Below are positions 689-21,017 of a DNA stretch of 64,000 bases, piece after piece; the stretch's first letter is position 1; each line of letters starts with the position of its first letter. The DNA comes from Escherichia coli (GTDB lineage Bacteria > Pseudomonadota > Gammaproteobacteria > Enterobacterales > Enterobacteriaceae), in the NCBI RefSeq assembly GCF_050320075.1, contig NZ_CP190018.1; one strand, given 5' to 3'. The position numbers and the translations under genes are program-made. A model generated the notes under the pieces. The model saw only the letters and a list, made by a program, of their open reading frames with translations. It was not told where the DNA came from and did no database searches.

Positions 689-2176
689 TTAAATCACCTC
701 TTCGATAACCCACACGCTGACGCTGCCGCCGTTGCAAAAGAAGGTCGCTTCGCCGTTTTCGTCGGTCACAACGCTCTCTTGCCGATTCCCCAGAAAATCA
801 CGCCAGGTTTTATTGCCGTAATTCTCTCCCAGATGAATGGTTTTTTCGCCATCATCCCCGTTTGACATAACCACCACGCAGCCGGGATATTCGTCGGTGC
901 CACTGCGGCTAAAGGCAATGCAGTTCGGATGGTCGAAAAATAACGTCTGTACACCGTGGGCGAAACGCTGACGGGCGAGAATTAACTCATCAAGTTGTTC
1001 GATTATTGGCATATCTATCGGATAGGTTTGCCCGTCACCGCCAACATCTTCGTAATGCGCGCCATAGAGGTCCGGATAGAATACCGAAGGAACGCCATTT
1101 TCCCGCAACAAAATTAGAGCATACGCCAGCGGTTTAAACCACGGTTCGACCGGTGCTTCGAGGGCTTGCAACGGTTGGGTGTCGTGGTTGGCAACGAGTG
1201 TTACGGCGTGAAAAGGATCGGCTTCCACTAATGTACCCGTGAAAATCTGCGTCATGTCGTAGTCGCGCCCCATGCGCGATGCTTCATGGAATTTCATCTG
1301 CAGCGGTGCATCGAACAGCATGGTTTTGCCTTCCACCTGATCAATATACGTTTGCAGTTTATCGACTTCATGCGACCAGTATTCAGCCACAATAAATAGC
1401 GGCTTTGGTGCAACTTCTTGTACGTGTTCGATCCACTCTTTATAAAACCACGCCGGAATATGTTTGACCGCATCAAGACGAAAACCGTCGCATTGCGTTT
1501 GTTCCATCACCCAGCGCGCCCAGTATTTAATCTCTTCCGTCACGGCATGATTGCGGAAATCGATATTCTCGCCCATCAGATAATCGAAATTACCGAGTTC
1601 ATCATCAACCTGATCGTTCCAGCCTTCGCCGGTGTAGTCGTTAACAATTTTAAAAATGCCATCTTCATCAGGGTTTTCGATATGGTCGATACCGCTAAAA
1701 CATTTGAAATCCCAGATAAACTGCGAGTATTGCCCGGCACGGGCGGGGAAGGTGTAACGCGTCCAGCCTTCGCACTCAATGATTTCTTCGTCAATTTGCG
1801 TACGGTCATCAGCATTTACACGCTGCACGCGAATAGCTTCTTTTTCATCCGCGCCCATTTTGTGGTTGACTACCACGTCCAGCAGCACCGCAATGTCATT
1901 ACGTTTCAGAGCGTCAATGGCGGCCAGCAGTTGTGCTTTATCGCCATATTTAGTAGGGATGCTGCCTTTCTGATCAAACTCGCCTAAATCAAATAAATCA
2001 TAGGAGTCGTAGCCGACCGAATACCCGCCCGATGCGCCTTTATAGGCGGGCGGCAACCAGACCATATTGATACCAATATCATTAAAACCGTCGGCGCGCT
2101 CGGCCAGTTCAGGCCAGAGCTTACCGCCTTCCGGGTAATACCAGTGAAAACATTGTAACAGCGTGGGATTACGCAT
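689..2176 (-). CDS. amyA: cytoplasmic alpha-amylase
   Basis: 495-aa ORF recognised as E. coli AmyA. Confidence 0.95.
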
Positions 2177-2253
2177 TCTTCGACTCCATTCAAGGGGAAC
2201 ATTAGAAGCGTAGCCGTAATCGGATTATTCGCGAGCCATCGGCTCGTTAAGAT

Positions 2254-2619
2254 TCAAAAGAGGTTATCCTGCGGAGCCAGCACAAAGCCGCCCTGATCGC
2301 CATAGGCACTTAACACCGATTTTTGCATCGATGACTGACCGACCAGTTTCGCCAGTTCATCCATCCGAATCTGTAATAACTGCTTCACCTTGCTTTCGTT
2401 ATCGAGAATCAGGCGCAGCATCGGGCGGAGTTGCTCCTGCATCGTGGTGGACGGCTCAACCTCTTCAGTCAGGTGTGCAATCTCCTGCACCGCATTCACA
2501 TACGCCATTTCGCTGGCGATGAGTTCGTCCCACTGTTCTTCCGTTGCCAGGCGTAACATGAGCTGGCTTTTTTCGACGAGTTGTTGCCAGGCGAAATACA
2601 AATGCGGTGCGTGGTTCAT
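2254..2619 (-). CDS. fliT: flagellar export chaperone / anti-FlhDC factor FliT
   Basis: 121-aa ORF, last gene of fliDST. Confidence 0.9.
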
Positions 2620-3029
2620 CAGACTGGGTCCTGAATCAAAGAAGGGGAGAGTAACGACTCTTTCCAGGCATCGGCAATATTGCGCATTAATGCTTCCACT
2701 TCTTCGACTGCGGAGACATCGTTGCGTAAATTGGCTTGCAGCAAACGCCTGACCATATAGCTATAAAGAGCAATCAAGTTTTGGGTTAATTCGTCATTGC
2801 TCTCTTCATCAAGACTCACCCGCAGTCCGTTCTCAATAATGTTGATCGCTTTTGACAAAGAGACGCCTTTGCCTTGCTGATTGTTGTCCTGCATAAACAG
2901 GCGCGCTCTAACCAGTGCGCTCAGCACTCCATCAAATAGCATGGTGACCAGCTGCTGCTGGCTGGCGCTCATTACGGCGCTTTCGACGCCAATTTGTGCA
3001 TAGGCCTGGGTGCCTTTTGCCGCGTACAT
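2619..3029 (-). CDS. fliS: flagellin-specific chaperone FliS
   Basis: 136-aa ORF in fliDST. Confidence 0.9.
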
Positions 3030-3053
3030 GACCTGTCTCCCGATGAATATTGA

Positions 3054-4460
3054 TTACTTGGAATTACTGTTGTTTTCGAACTGCTGCGTTAAGTAGCTGC
3101 TGGTGCTGTTTAACGAGGTCATTAAAACGTCCAGTTGGGTAAATTGTTCTTTGTAGCGCGCGACCTGCGCATCAATGCGATCGCTGGCGGCGTTGTAGTC
3201 TTTAGTTAACTTATTCAGGGTCTTACTAACGCCATCGGTAGCGGCTTTAATAATGCCTGTTGTCGAAAGCCAACTGGTCAGGTTGCTGCCGATGGTGGTT
3301 GTGATGCCGGTTTTTTTACCATCGCCAACAATCAATGCACCTACGCCGCTGGCATCTTTTTTCAATGCAGCGGTGAGTTTGTCGGCATCCAGCTCCAGTT
3401 TGCCATCGCTGGGATCGGTCGTGATACCAATCTGCGCCAGCGTTTTATAGTTGGAAGAACTGACGGTATTACTCAGCATCGATTTCAACTGCGTCTGAAT
3501 CGTCCGCAGCGTGGAGTCGCCGAGCAGTGCGCCATTGCTAGAACTCTGGCTATCAGCTCCCGCATCTACGGCGGTGTATTTGGTCAGGCTGCTGAAGGTA
3601 TCTATTAGCGAGTTATAGGCATTCACCCAGTCTTTAATCGCCGTTTGCGCTTTGGAGGTGTCCTGAGTGATGGTTAGCGTCTGGTTGCCCGTGGTGACAT
3701 CGTTCAGGTTCAGGGTGATGTTTTCCAGCGCGTCGCTGATGGTGTTGCTGCTGTTCTCAATGGCGACGTTGTTGACCGTCAGCTGCGCATTCTGGGCGGC
3801 GACCGAGACCTCCATACCGTTGCTACTGGCACTGGCGTCATAGCCCATAAAACTTTGTAGCGCATCATCACCGCTAACCGAGAGCGTCATCGCATTATCA
3901 AGGCCGGTGTCATTCGATGTGACTGACAGACGATATTCACCGTTACCCACGTTAATGATGCTTGCGCTTACACCTGCTTTTGCGTTGTTGATGGCATCAC
4001 GGATCCCGCTTAACGACGAGTTAGCCGCGCTGATATCAATGGTGATCGGCTCTTTGTCGCCGCCTTGTTGAATGGTGAGTTTGCTGTCGCTGGTGGCGAT
4101 CGCCGTTTTCGTATCGTCTCTGGTGGTGCGCGTGGTCAGGGTTTGCGCCTGCGCCAGATGGGTGACGCTGATGGTGTATTTCCCGGCGATGGCGTTACCC
4201 GCAGTGGTGGCACTGAACGCGGTGGTGCTGCTGGTAGTGCTGGTGGCGGAAAAAAGATCGGCTTTAGACAATGCAGTATTGGCGGTCTGGAAAGTCGTCA
4301 GCGCGCTTTTCAGCGTACCGTAGGCGCTAAGTTTAGCGGTAAACGACGATTGCTGATTTGAAATAGGGGTTAGCGTCGCTTTTTGCGCGGCGGTGAGGCT
4401 ATCAAGGATTGAACTTAAATCCAGGCCTGACCCGACTCCCAGCGATGAAATACTTGCCAT
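3054..4460 (-). CDS. fliD: flagellar filament cap protein FliD
   Basis: 468-aa Ser/Thr-rich ORF, divergent from fliC. Confidence 0.95.
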   Translation of the reverse strand: MASISSLGVGSGLDLSSILDSLTAAQKATLTPISNQQSSFTAKLSAYGTLKSALTTFQTANTALSKADLFSATSTTSSTTAFSATTAGNAIAGKYTISVTHLAQAQTLTTRTTRDDTKTAIATSDSKLTIQQGGDKEPITIDISAANSSLSGIRDAINNAKAGVSASIINVGNGEYRLSVTSNDTGLDNAMTLSVSGDDALQSFMGYDASASSNGMEVSVAAQNAQLTVNNVAIENSSNTISDALENITLNLNDVTTGNQTLTITQDTSKAQTAIKDWVNAYNSLIDTFSSLTKYTAVDAGADSQSSSNGALLGDSTLRTIQTQLKSMLSNTVSSSNYKTLAQIGITTDPSDGKLELDADKLTAALKKDASGVGALIVGDGKKTGITTTIGSNLTSWLSTTGIIKAATDGVSKTLNKLTKDYNAASDRIDAQVARYKEQFTQLDVLMTSLNSTSSYLTQQFENNSNSK

Positions 4461-16462: not shown

Positions 16463-16516
16463 GTTTAAAAGGCATCGGCGTCAAGCGGATGTCTGGCTGA
16501 AAGGCCTGAAGAATTT

Positions 16517-16590
16517 GGCGCGTTAACAAAGCGGTTATGTAGCGGATTGCAAATCCGTCTAGTCCGGTTCGACTCCGGAACGCGCCTCCA
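16517..16590 (+). tRNA. cysT: tRNA-Cys (GCA)
   Basis: GGCGCGTTAACAAAGCGG...CGCGCCTCCA, anticodon GCA. Confidence 0.95.
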
Positions 16591-16602
16591 CTTTCTTCCC
16601 GA

Positions 16603-16689
16603 GCCCGGATGGTGGAATCGGTAGACACAAGGGATTTAAAATCCCTCGGCGTTCGCGCTGTGCGGGTTCAAGTCCCGCTCCGGGTACCA
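16603..16689 (+). tRNA. leuZ: tRNA-Leu (UAA)
   Basis: GCCCGGATGGTGGAATCGGTAGACACAAGGGATTTAAAATCCC...CCGGGTACCA, long variable arm, anticodon TAA. Confidence 0.95.
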
Positions 16690-16763
16690 TGGGAAAGATA
16701 AGAATAAAATCAAAGCAATAAGCAGTGTCGTGAAACCACCTTCGGGTGGTTTTTTTGTGCCTG
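16634..16763. repeat. direct repeat copy 1 (att-like): 3' 56 nt of leuZ plus ~74 bp downstream including terminator
   Basis: Near-identical to 20765..20895; begins in the leuZ anticodon loop. Confidence 0.85.
16733..16757 (+). terminator. rho-independent terminator of the glyW-cysT-leuZ operon
   Basis: AAACCACCTTCGGGTGGTTT hairpin followed by TTTTTTT. Confidence 0.7.
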
Positions 16764-16941
16764 AAATTCACGCCCTGTGCATATCCTGTGCTCACGGGGG
16801 GCAATGAGCTGCAATCTCAAGCCCGGCAATGCCGAATCGAACGTGTCGCCTCCAGCATAGAGAACCAGGCCGCTTTGCCTGTTTTCCGGTACTCTTCCGG
16901 GAAGGGGGGCCAGCTGAGCAAGCTATAATGCTCTGGCCACC

Positions 16942-17673
16942 CTAAGCACAAAGTTGCTTAATTCGTGCAATCACCTCATCTCTGTATTTCTGGTGTCCGC
17001 GCATAGCCCTTGGATGGGCTATCCTGAAACAGATTGTATGACCTGTTTTGAACTCCCATAGCTTCCCCGGAATGACTGAAGAAGTCTCATAGCCGCCTAG
17101 CTCAGTAAGCACCTGTTTTATGATGTAGTCTGTTCTCCGGGCTCCGGATGCAAAGATGGTGAAATCAGGCTCAAGGTGTTTAATTTGTACCGCCAGCAGT
17201 TTCAGCGAGGCTAATATGACTTCCTGCACTTCATTTTGAGGGCGATTGAGAGGGGGCAGTCCGTCGTAATCCCACGCCAGTAGATTGGCATACACGATAG
17301 CCTGAGGAGGAATATTAAGCTCCCGGGCCAGCCGGAAGTGATACTGCGTGAAGCGGCTACGTGATTTGTGGTTCGTGGTGCCATCATTTTGTGCCGGAAG
17401 ATGTTTCCTGTAACGATCTACAGCCTCTTCAACCACCTGCCCGATGGTGACGTCAGGTATAAGTCCCAGAACCCGTGATATCGTATTCTTACCATTCAGC
17501 GTATTCCAGCCAGCGGTTTCACGCCCAACCAGCATGATTTTTACCGGTGAGTGCCAGTATTCTTCAAAGGGCACGGGTAAAAAGACGCCTGAGTATTTAT
17601 CCTCATTCAGGTTAAATGACTGGGCGTCAACTTCCTGTAATATCCGTTTGTATGCGTCTAATAGTCTTTCCAT
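16942..17673 (-). CDS. hypothetical protein, 243 aa, with uracil-DNA-glycosylase-superfamily-like motif pattern (tentative)
   Basis: Long intact ORF; N-terminal KIMLVGRETAGW resembles UDG motif A (family 4 IMFVGEAPG), C-terminal IAHPRAMRG resembles motif B (HPxxxxR); no database search possible. Confidence 0.55.
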   Translation of the reverse strand: MERLLDAYKRILQEVDAQSFNLNEDKYSGVFLPVPFEEYWHSPVKIMLVGRETAGWNTLNGKNTISRVLGLIPDVTIGQVVEEAVDRYRKHLPAQNDGTTNHKSRSRFTQYHFRLARELNIPPQAIVYANLLAWDYDGLPPLNRPQNEVQEVILASLKLLAVQIKHLEPDFTIFASGARRTDYIIKQVLTELGGYETSSVIPGKLWEFKTGHTICFRIAHPRAMRGHQKYRDEVIARIKQLCA

Positions 17674-17753
17674 TCTTCAATCCTGCCCCGTAATAAAAAT
17701 ACCTTCAGATATATATTATTTTCATGATATCAATCAGATACATGAGGATAAAT

Positions 17754-18440
17754 ATGCAAAAATCCTTCCGATTCACCAATTCATCCATCAAAGCCCTTCC
17801 GGCAAACACAGATACCCGATCTACAGAGCTTGAGGTATCTGATACCGAAGTCATTGGCCTCAAATGCCTCTCAGGTCGAACGGGCAACAAACGTTTCCTC
17901 CTGCGCTACACATTCCACGGTACCAAAAAAAGTATCAGTATTGGCAGATTCCCTGAAATCGATGTGGGAACAGCCCGTCAGATAGCTCGTCGTCACAAGG
18001 AGGCGATTGCACTGGGAAATGACCCTAAGGCAGAGCGCGATAATTATCGGGCGATGCCAACGCTTAGTGAGTTTTTTCACCAGACCTATGTTCCGTTCAT
18101 CAAGCGCCATAAAAAGTCCTGGGATAAGGATGTTCAGCGTTTCACGCAATACATTGAACCTCGTCTGGGGAAGATACGTTACTGCGACCTTCAGGCCCGG
18201 GAAATCCAGCAGGTGCTTTTTGACATGCTTGAGGGCCGTATTCACGGCCAGCAGTATGCACCGTCTACCTGTAACAGGGCACTGGCTATTCTGAAAACCA
18301 TGGGCCGTTATGCGCTACGACAGGATGTCCTGGAGAAGAATGAAGCCGATAAGATCCCTTTGCTGAAGGAGAATAATCACCGGACGCGCTTTTTTGACGC
18401 TGATGAGATCAGGAGAATCCTTGATGCTGCGTCTCGATAA
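17754..18440 (+). pseudogene. P4-type tyrosine integrase, N-terminal fragment only (catalytic domain missing)
   Basis: MQKSFRFTNSSIKALP... arm-binding/DUF4102-like N terminus and core-binding region; ORF stops at ~228 aa versus ~400 aa expected, so the R..HxxR..Y catalytic domain is absent. Confidence 0.75.
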
Positions 18441-18454
18441 CCCAATAAAGCTGC

Positions 18455-18490
<36 letters not shown>

Positions 18491-18491
18491 C

Positions 18492-18535
<44 letters not shown>

Positions 18536-18655
18536 TTCTAAGGCTTGCTTTAATGCTAAGGCTAAATGATTTTGATATAGTAAGTTCATACTTAGCGGGC
18601 AGATGCCCACAGACATAGTACCGAAAATAAATCAGGTATTCTGCGAGATTTCAGT

Positions 18656-19984
18656 ATGAAAATAGCCAATATTAGACTTACGAATTTTAGATGTTTTGAC
18701 GAGTTTAGTGTTGATTTTGACCCAAGACTTACAGTTCTCATTGCTCGTAATGGTAGAGGGAAATCTACTCTGCTTGACGCGGTAGCATTAGCTTTAGGAC
18801 CATTTTTAACTCGTTTGCCAGGGATCAAAGGGCTAAGTTTCAAGAAAACCGATTTCCGGATCGACGAAAATGGAGACCAGCCGTCCTATATGCGAGTAAG
18901 TTGTACTAGTACAACGGGTATAACTTGGGATAGAACTGAGCGAAGAGATCTGACAAAAAAAACGTTAGGTAGCATCCCCCAAGGGGCAGCCCTTAAAGCC
19001 TTGAATGATTACGTCGATACGTTCATTGATTCTCACAATGAGAATAAACACTATACATTGCCAATTTTTGTTTATTACGGAACTGGGCGTGGAGTGTTTG
19101 ATATACCACTCAGAAAACGTGCATTTAACAAGCATTTTTCTCGATTTGAGGCCCTTGACGGTGCTCTTGAAAGCAAAACAAATTTCAAAAGATTTGTGCA
19201 ATATTTTTATTTTCTTGAAGAAAAAGAAAATAGATTACAGAAAGAGCAACGATCATTTGAAGTAGAAATCCCTGAATTAAGGGCAATACGCTTGGCTGTG
19301 GAAAAATTACTGCCAGAGTTTAGCAATATTCGCTCGGCAGTACCTGCTGGAATTATGGTCGATTGGTGTAAGCCTATTGGAAATGGTGAAACAACCATAC
19401 AAAAGCTAAGGATTGAACAACTTAGTGATGGCTATAGAACAACTTTAGCTATGGTTATGGATATTGCAGCAAGAATGGCAGAAGCTAACCCCTATTCGAG
19501 TGATCCTCTAAGTTCTGAGGGGATAATTCTCATTGATGAGGTAGATCTGCATCTGCATCCGGAATGGCAACGTGAGTTTCTCCCTAGATTAATCAACGTT
19601 TTCCCTCATCTTCAGTTCATAGTATCGACGCATTCACCATTTATCATCCAGTCTGTCAAAGAGGGGATGTTGGTCGATCTTGATAAAGATGACATTTCGG
19701 ATAGCCCCTCTTTGAATAAAGAACTCAGCATCGAAGATATTGCTGAGGGTGTAATGGGAATGGAAAAAGTTCAACGAAGTGAATTGTTTAACAAACAAGT
19801 CGCAGTTTCAGATAGATATTATCAGTTACTGAATGAAGGAAGAAGTGAAAGCGACCCAGAGGTAAGGAAGCTCTCCGCTGAGCTTGATAAATTGGAAGAG
19901 TTTTTTGGAGATAACCCAGCTTATGTAGCCTTACTTCGTGCTGAGCGCCGAAAAATAATGGGGACACAAGGAAGTAAACAATGA
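18656..19984 (+). CDS. ABC/AAA-type ATPase (RecF/SMC-like head, AAA_15/21-like), 442 aa; Septu PtuA-like candidate
   Basis: Walker A NGRGKST (K36), signature-like LSDGYR, Walker B IILIDEVD, H-loop STHSP; ~37% GC; stop overlaps the downstream start (ATGA). Confidence 0.85.
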   Translation: MKIANIRLTNFRCFDEFSVDFDPRLTVLIARNGRGKSTLLDAVALALGPFLTRLPGIKGLSFKKTDFRIDENGDQPSYMRVSCTSTTGITWDRTERRDLTKKTLGSIPQGAALKALNDYVDTFIDSHNENKHYTLPIFVYYGTGRGVFDIPLRKRAFNKHFSRFEALDGALESKTNFKRFVQYFYFLEEKENRLQKEQRSFEVEIPELRAIRLAVEKLLPEFSNIRSAVPAGIMVDWCKPIGNGETTIQKLRIEQLSDGYRTTLAMVMDIAARMAEANPYSSDPLSSEGIILIDEVDLHLHPEWQREFLPRLINVFPHLQFIVSTHSPFIIQSVKEGMLVDLDKDDISDSPSLNKELSIEDIAEGVMGMEKVQRSELFNKQVAVSDRYYQLLNEGRSESDPEVRKLSAELDKLEEFFGDNPAYVALLRAERRKIMGTQGSKQ

Positions 19985-20592
19985 GACCTGTAAATCGACC
20001 TCCATATAATGGAACTGTTTATGCAGATTATAAATCATTTTTACCTTCGCTATTAACTGCATATGGCGGATATTGTTCTTATTGTGAGCGGCCGGATAAG
20101 GTTGATGTGGAGCATGTTGTCCCAAAAACGCATGCACCACTTTTGATTACTGATTGGAACAATTTTTTACTGGGTTGCCCTCGCTGTAACCGAGATTTTA
20201 AAAAAAGTAAGAATACTCAACGTATAGGCTATGTTTGGCCAGATGTTGAGAATACATTTAATTTATTGACATACCATCCAGATGGTAGAGTAGAGCCTAA
20301 GCAGGGGCTGTCTGCCGGACTAACTGCGCAGGTACAGGCTACTATTGATTTGGTATGTCTTGATGATGGTAACCAAGTACAAAAAACTTTAAATCTTGGT
20401 AGAAGGAGATATTTTGGACTCGCGAATAAGGCCAAGACTCTTTATCTGAGTAATTTATTGAGTATTGATGAGGTCATGGATATGGCTCAGTTAGGATATT
20501 GGTCGATCTGGTATAATGTGTTTCAAGGTGTACCTGCTGTCCTTTCAGCTTTGGAGAATTCCTATCCTAATACCGCTATAAACCGCCCATGA
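19981..20592 (+). CDS. HNH endonuclease, 203 aa; Septu PtuB-like candidate
   Basis: Zinc-finger HNH pattern C32-x2-C35 ... H45 ... N60 ... C66-x2-C69; translationally coupled to the upstream ATPase. Confidence 0.85.
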   Translation: MRPVNRPPYNGTVYADYKSFLPSLLTAYGGYCSYCERPDKVDVEHVVPKTHAPLLITDWNNFLLGCPRCNRDFKKSKNTQRIGYVWPDVENTFNLLTYHPDGRVEPKQGLSAGLTAQVQATIDLVCLDDGNQVQKTLNLGRRRYFGLANKAKTLYLSNLLSIDEVMDMAQLGYWSIWYNVFQGVPAVLSALENSYPNTAINRP

Positions 20593-20764
20593 CATAGGTG
20601 AAATGAATTGGCTCAGGTGCGTACAAGGGGAAGACTTACCTGTGCAGCTTCTGTGTTCAACGTTATCCATGTCTATCTATTTACTGCCAATTACAGTAAA
20701 GTTGGTGGATAATTACAGCAAAGTGTTGCAATGGGTTGCTATGTAAATCATTGATCCTGCGTAG

Positions 20765-20895
20765 AATTTAAAATCCCTCGGCGTTCGCGCTGTGCGGGTT
20801 CAAGTACCCGCTCCGGGTACCATGGGAAAGATAAGAATAAAATCAAAGCAATAAGCAGTGTCGTGAAACCACCTTCGGGTGGTTTTTTTGTGCCT
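20765..20895. repeat. direct repeat copy 2 (att-like): partial leuZ 3' half + terminator copy with a 1-bp insertion
   Basis: Matches 16634..16763 except an extra A (CAAGTACCCGCTCC versus CAAGTCCCGCTCC). Confidence 0.85.
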
Positions 20896-21017
20896 GCAAC
20901 TTGTCGTTACACCCTCCTTAATTTTTAATCACCGGCAAAGCCACTCAAAAAGTATCTCTGTTACGGACCGACATGTAAGATAGGTGCTGGCGAGTTGAGA
21001 TCCACAAGGAAAAGCGT

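Follow-up and report, generated by a model that had tools for sequence, protein, structure and literature searches.

The 243-aa protein encoded at 16942-17673 of the window (the whole 64,000-nt stretch of Escherichia coli DNA analyzed here) has a uracil-DNA glycosylase (UDG) fold, an assignment that is solid, and its gene belongs to the same family as the 'UDG' published for E. coli pipolins. The gene lies in a decayed E. coli pipolin that has lost piPolB and whose interior (window 18441-20765) has been replaced by the defence system Septu. Judged from its sequence, the protein most probably works on its own as an active DNA glycosylase of the monofunctional type. Its annotation as a UDG was already known from the pipolin literature and is not new as an annotation.

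A decayed pipolin with Septu at tRNA-Leu

The gene order in this region is sdiA - uvrY - uvrC - pgsA - tRNA-Gly/Cys/Leu, followed by the insert and then by yecA - tyrP, and the tRNA-Leu is the integration target of the island. The features of the island, given as window positions, are:

16603-16689, plus strand: tRNA-Leu (anticodon TAA), the last of the Gly-Cys-Leu tRNA cluster (ARAGORN and the RefSeq annotation of an identical locus)
16634-16766, plus strand: tRNA-proximal att direct repeat, comprising the 3' part of tRNA-Leu and the terminator (repeat search)
16942-17673, minus strand: 243-aa UDG-superfamily gene, the pipolin 'UDG' (intact ORF with an ATG start)
17754-18440, plus strand: truncated tyrosine integrase, retaining just the N-terminal arm-binding and core-binding part (similarity; RefSeq pseudogene)
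18656-19984, plus strand: Septu PtuA, an AAA ATPase (PADLOC PDLC00267, E 2e-190)
19981-20592, plus strand: Septu PtuB, an HNH endonuclease (PADLOC PDLC00315, E 6e-61)
20766-20899, plus strand: distal att direct repeat at the island end, just before yecA (repeat search)

The att repeats measure 133 nt, with segments of 43 and 93 nt recurring at 98-99% identity 4.13 kb downstream, and they enclose four genes: the UDG-like ORF, the truncated integrase, PtuA and PtuB. The integrase remnant noticed in an earlier, sequence-only reading of this DNA is indeed one, as it matches residues 1-237 of a 400-aa integrase at 98% identity, and relatives have the gene in full length; it is divergent from the UDG-like gene across an 81-bp spacer. 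PtuA and PtuB form one operon with a 4-nt gene overlap and make up a complete Septu system.

E. coli pipolins use Leu-tRNA as their integration site and lie between att repeats, one of which overlaps the Leu-tRNA. The window shows this arrangement together with a tyrosine recombinase syntenic with the UDG at the tRNA end, and the hallmark that is missing between its att repeats is piPolB. Positions 16501-18461 are 96% identical to a full island carrying the polymerase; the similarity to the full pipolin ends at about 18461, inside the integrase gene, and tblastn gave no match in the window for piPolB, DUF2787, WYL or small core genes. The absence of piPolB, set against the 96% identity to a polymerase-bearing island, thus identifies the insert as a remnant rather than a complete pipolin. 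The 'mobile island' of the sequence-only reading can accordingly be named more specifically as a decayed pipolin, a type of element in which this gene is already listed as a UDG. This stretch of E. coli chromosome matches strain 746 and 39 further complete genomes at 100% identity over 4.8 kb. A pipolin remnant joined to Septu in precisely this arrangement was seen in 40 of 5426 complete E. coli genomes.

Pipolin papers published between 2017 and 2024 annotate the gene as a frequent 'type-4 UDG' beside the att-proximal recombinase (Redrejo-Rodriguez et al. 2017, PMC5695915; Flament-Simon et al. 2020, PMC7385651; ExplorePipolin, PMC9710591; Mateo-Caceres et al. 2024, PMC11551731). The published gene and the one studied here share their place between the Leu-tRNA-overlapping att repeat and a XerC/IntSXT-type recombinase as well as their enterobacterial host range, whereas the window copy sits in a remnant devoid of piPolB, DUF2787 and WYL genes. 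The authors of these papers assign maintenance to the att-proximal conserved core and defence to a distal cargo module, and they class the UDGs with replication-associated genes. A literature search by accession numbers found no paper.

The ORF itself is a real gene under purifying selection, as indicated by dN/dS values of 0.11-0.26 against 16 relatives. An AGGA Shine-Dalgarno-like element lies about 8 nt 5' of its ATG, and a promoter scan of window 16600-18000 found no consensus sigma-70 site. Its G+C content of about 50% is host-like, unlike that of the AT-rich Septu module (about 40%). Database variants of the protein include a 246-aa form ending in QLCTQGG and forms of 284 and 293 aa, the latter two with an N-terminal extension from a start further upstream.

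Fold, pocket and predicted substrate

Searches with the single protein against Pfam, NCBIfam (E<=1), PADLOC and PDB sequences returned no match. A family profile built from a 79-sequence alignment, with identity down to 22%, matched the Sulfolobus tokodaii family-4 UDG by sequence (E 3e-6), and hhalign of this family against a four-member family-4 mini-alignment gave a probability of 80% (E 1.3e-5). Together these two results indicate that the resemblance to UDGs is more than chance. The reference family-4 enzymes were those of Thermus thermophilus (1UI0), Thermotoga maritima (1L9G) and S. tokodaii (4ZBY). The alpha/beta fold with its four-stranded parallel sheet agrees with solved UDGs, so that the UDG-like fold suggested by the sequence-only reading is borne out by structure as well as by profile. 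Additionally, 31 of the 79 family members touch Pfam UDG at E<=0.1, and relatives are already named 'Uracil-DNA glycosylase-like domain-containing protein' in AlphaFold DB/UniProt.

The segments of the protein that bear on the pocket are:

17503-17541, minus strand: motif-A-like loop after strand beta1, residues 45-57, KIMLVGRETAGWN (secondary structure and column counts)
17266-17286, minus strand: end of strand beta2, residues 130-136, NLLAWDY (alignments and column counts)
16993-17025, minus strand: motif B, residues 217-227, RIAHPRAMRGH (alignments and column counts)

The ORF and the two peptides proposed earlier as UDG motifs lie where they had been placed: KIMLVGRETAGW comprises residues 45-56 (window 17506-17541), and IAHPRAMRG comprises residues 218-226 (window 16996-17022). 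The assignment of IAHPRAMRG to motif B was confirmed by alignment, in which H220-P221 pair with the motif-B His-Pro of the family-4 structures 4ZBX and 1UI0, and H220 pairs with H155 of the T. thermophilus enzyme (hhalign). N130 pairs with the base-reading Asn, which is N80 in T. thermophilus UDG and N82 in the S. tokodaii enzyme. In a forced global alignment F108 pairs with the stacking Phe of 'RPF', and about 45 extra residues (57-102) separate it from motif A. The proposed motif A stands in part: a non-canonical GRETAG loop (G50-R-E52-T-A-G-W) directly follows strand beta1 (residues 46-50) and was placed by position, while neither hhalign nor forced global alignment gave a sequence alignment to canonical motif A.

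Conservation across the family is concentrated in these segments and a few further residues. G50, S156 and P169 are invariant in all 79 members; E52, F174, R217, H220 and P221 are present in 78, W56, N130, W206 and F208 in 77, F108 in 73, and D135 in just 40. The consensus of the motif-A-like loop is G-x-E-[TP]-x-x-W, read as GRETAG(W) in the window protein, which has every family-invariant residue of the 79-sequence alignment and likewise all the less strictly conserved ones counted here. Since all conserved pocket residues are kept, the pocket is likely to be intact.

The enzyme would flip a pyrimidine into a pocket built from the motif-A loop G50-x-E52-T-x-G-W56, the stacking aromatic F108, Asn130 at the end of strand beta2 and the motif-B pair His220-Pro221. 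Asn130 would read the O4/N3-H face of a uracil-type base and His220 would stabilise the leaving base, with Glu52 as the best candidate for the catalytic, water-activating carboxylate. In Brig1 the base-reading Asn is reported to be replaced by Glu, and a cytosine derivative is read. From the Asn found in 77 of 79 members and the motif-B His, as against the Glu of Brig1, we infer a uracil-type substrate, which may be U, hmU or hypermodified T. The hmC or glucosyl-hmC target considered in the sequence-only reading is thus not favoured, as the base-reading residue is the Asn of uracil enzymes and not Brig1's Glu.

The protein is not a strict family-4 ('type-4') UDG. Family-4 enzymes carry four cysteines holding a 4Fe-4S cluster, whereas the window protein has only two (C215 and C242) and therefore cannot form such a cluster; the family-4 invariant C13, C16 and C100 have no counterpart in it. 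Motif A reads GE[AG]PG in family 4 and GRETAG(W) here, and family 4 has no counterpart to the N-terminal 44 residues or to the roughly 45 additional residues that separate motif A from the stacking Phe. With the Fe-S cysteines and the family-4 motif A both absent, the published label needs revision.

Brig1 and Brig3 are UDG-fold anti-phage glycosylases acting on alpha-glucosyl-hmC and hmC, respectively. Membership of the Brig1 family was rejected, as the model NF047634 (antiviral_Brig1, cut-off 230 bits) gave a Brig1 control 303 bits and the window protein nothing. Between the two families hhalign returned a probability of 0.1%, so that no relation is detectable beyond the fold. Brig1 combines GLNPG with Glu at the base-reading position, in contrast to GRETAG with Asn. 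Compared by description only, the Brig3 residues N50-P51-S52 ... D127 ... N225 (preprint) are unlike GRETAG. Brig2 is a UDG-like enzyme carried by integrons and directed against phages whose DNA has hypermodified thymidine (Getz et al. 2025 preprint). By description it has the UDG fold, is mostly proteobacterial and associated with mobile elements, and acts on uracil-type bases, as Asn130 would predict for the window protein.

Distribution, gene decay and the partner of distant relatives

Although the sequence-only reading took the protein for an orphan, its relatives form 180 clusters at 90% identity and 504 at 50% identity (E<=0.001), and 535 of the 5426 complete E. coli genomes (about 10%) carry the gene, in the chromosome every time. 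It lies 252-269 bp from tRNA-Leu in every enterobacterial locus whose contig reaches the tRNA cluster, with the same arrangement in Escherichia, Citrobacter, Enterobacter, Buttiauxella, Franconibacter and Shimwellia; the distance is likewise kept in Kosakonia, where no integrase was detected. Among the enterobacterial loci sampled, surviving integrases are a near-identical gene, divergent and 79-82 bp upstream of the UDG-like gene. In most longer loci conserved small genes come next after the integrase, together with genes for a DUF2787 protein and WYL regulators, and the full order from tRNA-Leu through UDG and integrase to these genes recurs in Escherichia, Citrobacter, Enterobacter, Buttiauxella and Franconibacter. 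Seven loci also carry a protein of about 850 aa that is a DNA polymerase in RefSeq and matches Pfam DNA_pol_B_2.

The histories of the UDG-like gene and the integrase are discordant. Loci L012 and L014 differ by a dS of 0.66 in the UDG and 0.13 in the integrase, whereas L014 and L026 have identical UDGs (dS 0) and an integrase dS of 0.53, a pattern that points to recombination within or near the 81-bp spacer region. This agrees with the published incongruence of UDG, XerC and piPolB trees. The gene is also frameshifted in strains HKUOPY1 and I3, in both of which the integrase is intact, as is the polymerase in I3, and it is truncated by IS elements in NCTC9041. The disrupted alleles are:

L083, 10992-11731
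L084, 10986-11725
L085, 10992-11633

In an evenly spaced sample of 40 E. coli hits, about one third were shortened or had a 1-nt length change; this is a rough estimate, and decay of the gene seems common among E. coli carriers.

No homologue was found by tblastn in 50,697 phage genomes, and a phage origin was rejected on this result despite a strong PHROG match (phrog_29550). For the UDG (window 16945-17673) and for each of the small core proteins of one pipolin (L010; 85, 123, 177 and 144 aa) there is a match to a PHROG without known function, with E values from 1e-33 to 1e-172; such PHROGs were presumably built from islands annotated as prophages.

Outside Enterobacterales the homologues have no related integrase or tRNA adjacent, and most have no polymerase nearby and are located in defence islands. 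Throughout the clade at 51-55% identity (Marinobacter, Halopseudomonas, Stutzerimonas, Methylotuvimicrobium and others) the UDG-like gene is the second of a two-gene operon, whose first gene encodes an acidic protein of about 110 aa (pI 4.3-4.9) and either overlaps the UDG-like gene or stands 13-15 nt away. The partner has no family in Pfam, NCBIfam or PHROG. It is known from clades with 33-55% identity, with a distant homologue divergently placed in Vibrio and Photobacterium (L049, L053, L072). A hidden partner gene in E. coli was rejected, as a partner-family profile gave no match either in the window or among the Enterobacterales loci. Variable genes flank the pairs, including ZacABC, an HIT protein, a PD-T4-1-like nuclease, AbiJ, BrxR and WYL regulators and ADP-ribosylglycohydrolases, and in Proteus a solo UDG-like gene abuts Mrr and a type I R-M system. 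In four distinct loci an ADP-ribosylglycohydrolase-family gene adjoins the pair, on either side, and three of these loci (L043/L044, L046 and L067) have a divergent WYL regulator too. The genes concerned are:

L031-L046, L061-L070 and L082 (for example L061, 7657-7986): acidic partner directly upstream of the UDG-like gene
L042, 10765-11877: ADP-ribosylglycohydrolase
L043, 2127-3389: ADP-ribosylglycohydrolase
L046, 5140-6429: ADP-ribosylglycohydrolase
L067, 5847-7082: ADP-ribosylglycohydrolase

The metagenomic defence island of L067 also contains a second, sequence-unrelated UDG-like gene (1993-3137, minus strand; 261 aa, GITPG and HPSG, faint Pfam UDG match), which a small gene (120 aa, basic C-terminus) precedes and overlaps.

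A different context was found on a Cupriavidus metallidurans plasmid (L081, 6271-7756), where a NucS-domain endonuclease gene stands immediately ahead of a distant homologue (25% identity). This pair stands between imuA-imuB-dnaE2 (ImuABC) and ligD-ku in a block flanked by IS481 copies, a context that is repair-type and not defence-type. The most distant members are represented by three metagenomic contigs too short for their contexts to be informative.

Immunity, repair and other possible roles

Our preferred reading, held tentatively and a little short of even confidence, is that of a pipolin glycosylase with an immune, Brig-like role. On this reading, phage DNA entering the cell would lose uracil or 5-substituted (hypermodified) uracil to the enzyme, which would leave abasic sites that block replication or are cleaved by AP endonucleases of the host. 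Frameshifts and IS truncation in carriers, the lack of a phage homologue and the defence neighbours of relatives together favour an accessory, possibly immune, role. An ADP-ribosylglycohydrolase neighbour has been reported for Brig1 and Brig3, and its recurrence beside relatives of the window gene counts in the same direction. A defence role is thus plausible, with the defence-island context of relatives supporting but not proving it. Against a simple defence reading count the place of the gene beside the att-proximal conserved core instead of in the distal cargo module, its host-like G+C content unlike that of Septu, the replication-associated grouping by the pipolin authors and the Cupriavidus repair cluster. 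The immune reading is further weakened by the missing PADLOC and NCBIfam matches, by the undetectable relation to Brig1 and by a motif A matched to canonical UDGs by position only; additionally, with the acidic partner missing in E. coli, the context of the clades at 33-55% identity may not transfer.

A broader version of this reading, which we consider unlikely as a whole, would make the family, in its solo pipolin form and its two-gene form, a fourth, sequence-independent lineage of UDG-fold immune glycosylases directed at uracil- or hypermodified-thymidine-containing phage DNA. The partner would then act as a regulator or a DNA-mimic inhibitor, and the ADP-ribosylglycohydrolase would lay the base open by removing a sugar or ADP-ribose adduct, in analogy to BapA-Brig3.

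A serious rival to immunity, although we regard it as rather doubtful, is a repair or replication accessory, that is, an ordinary glycosylase for uracil or damaged bases that cleans the DNA of the primer-independent, translesion-capable PolB, or a partner of this polymerase. Physical partnerships of this kind are known for poxvirus D4 with E9 and for UDG domains fused to phage family-A polymerases. The protein retains N130 and H220, the canonical residues of the uracil type, the position of the gene beside the att-proximal core is constant among pipolins whose cargo differs considerably, and the same published classification, G+C content and NucS-ImuABC/LigD/Ku neighbourhood that speak against defence speak for repair. 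E. coli, however, already has Ung and Mug, and the gene is frameshifted where the integrase, or the integrase and the polymerase, are intact. It is conversely kept intact in the window, where there is no piPolB, its history is discordant with that of the integrase, and most non-enterobacterial relatives sit in defence islands with no polymerase nearby.

An improbable third explanation is a non-catalytic or conditionally toxic UDG-fold protein, either a sensor or binder of modified DNA or the toxic half of a two-gene module in which the acidic partner is an inhibitor or DNA mimic and the E. coli copy is partner-less. Inactivated glycosylase folds do act as sensors in END nucleases, and a sensor would agree with the non-canonical motif A; the E. 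coli protein, however, is single-domain and stand-alone, with no effector to signal to, and its candidate catalytic residues E52 and H220 are almost invariant. The toxic module draws on the acidic partner encoded immediately before the gene at every locus of the clade with 51-55% identity and on the divergently placed homologue in Vibrio and Photobacterium, but the window and the Enterobacterales loci all lack the partner, and its role is speculation given that it has no recognisable family.

Known directionality factors are small basic DNA-binding proteins and not UDG folds, and an accessory role in recombination for the adjacent integrase (excision or directionality factor) is scarcely credible: the divergent position between the att core and the integrase, 81 bp away, in every sampled enterobacterial locus keeping the integrase would suit it, but we rejected it on the fold, on the independent recombination seen in the dS values, on the pseudogenes in islands with an intact integrase, and on the non-Enterobacterales homologues with neither a related integrase nor a tRNA adjacent.

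Under either the immune or the repair role, the published 'type-4 UDG' label should change. Roughly a tenth of complete E. coli genomes carry the gene natively; it consists of one small ORF, in a host already used for Brig-type assays. If it supports replication or repair by piPolB, it would help to explain pipolin biology. If the preferred immune reading is true, pipolins would have a defence function beside their conserved core and not just in the cargo module, and UDG-fold immunity would reach uracil-type modified bases in enterobacteria.
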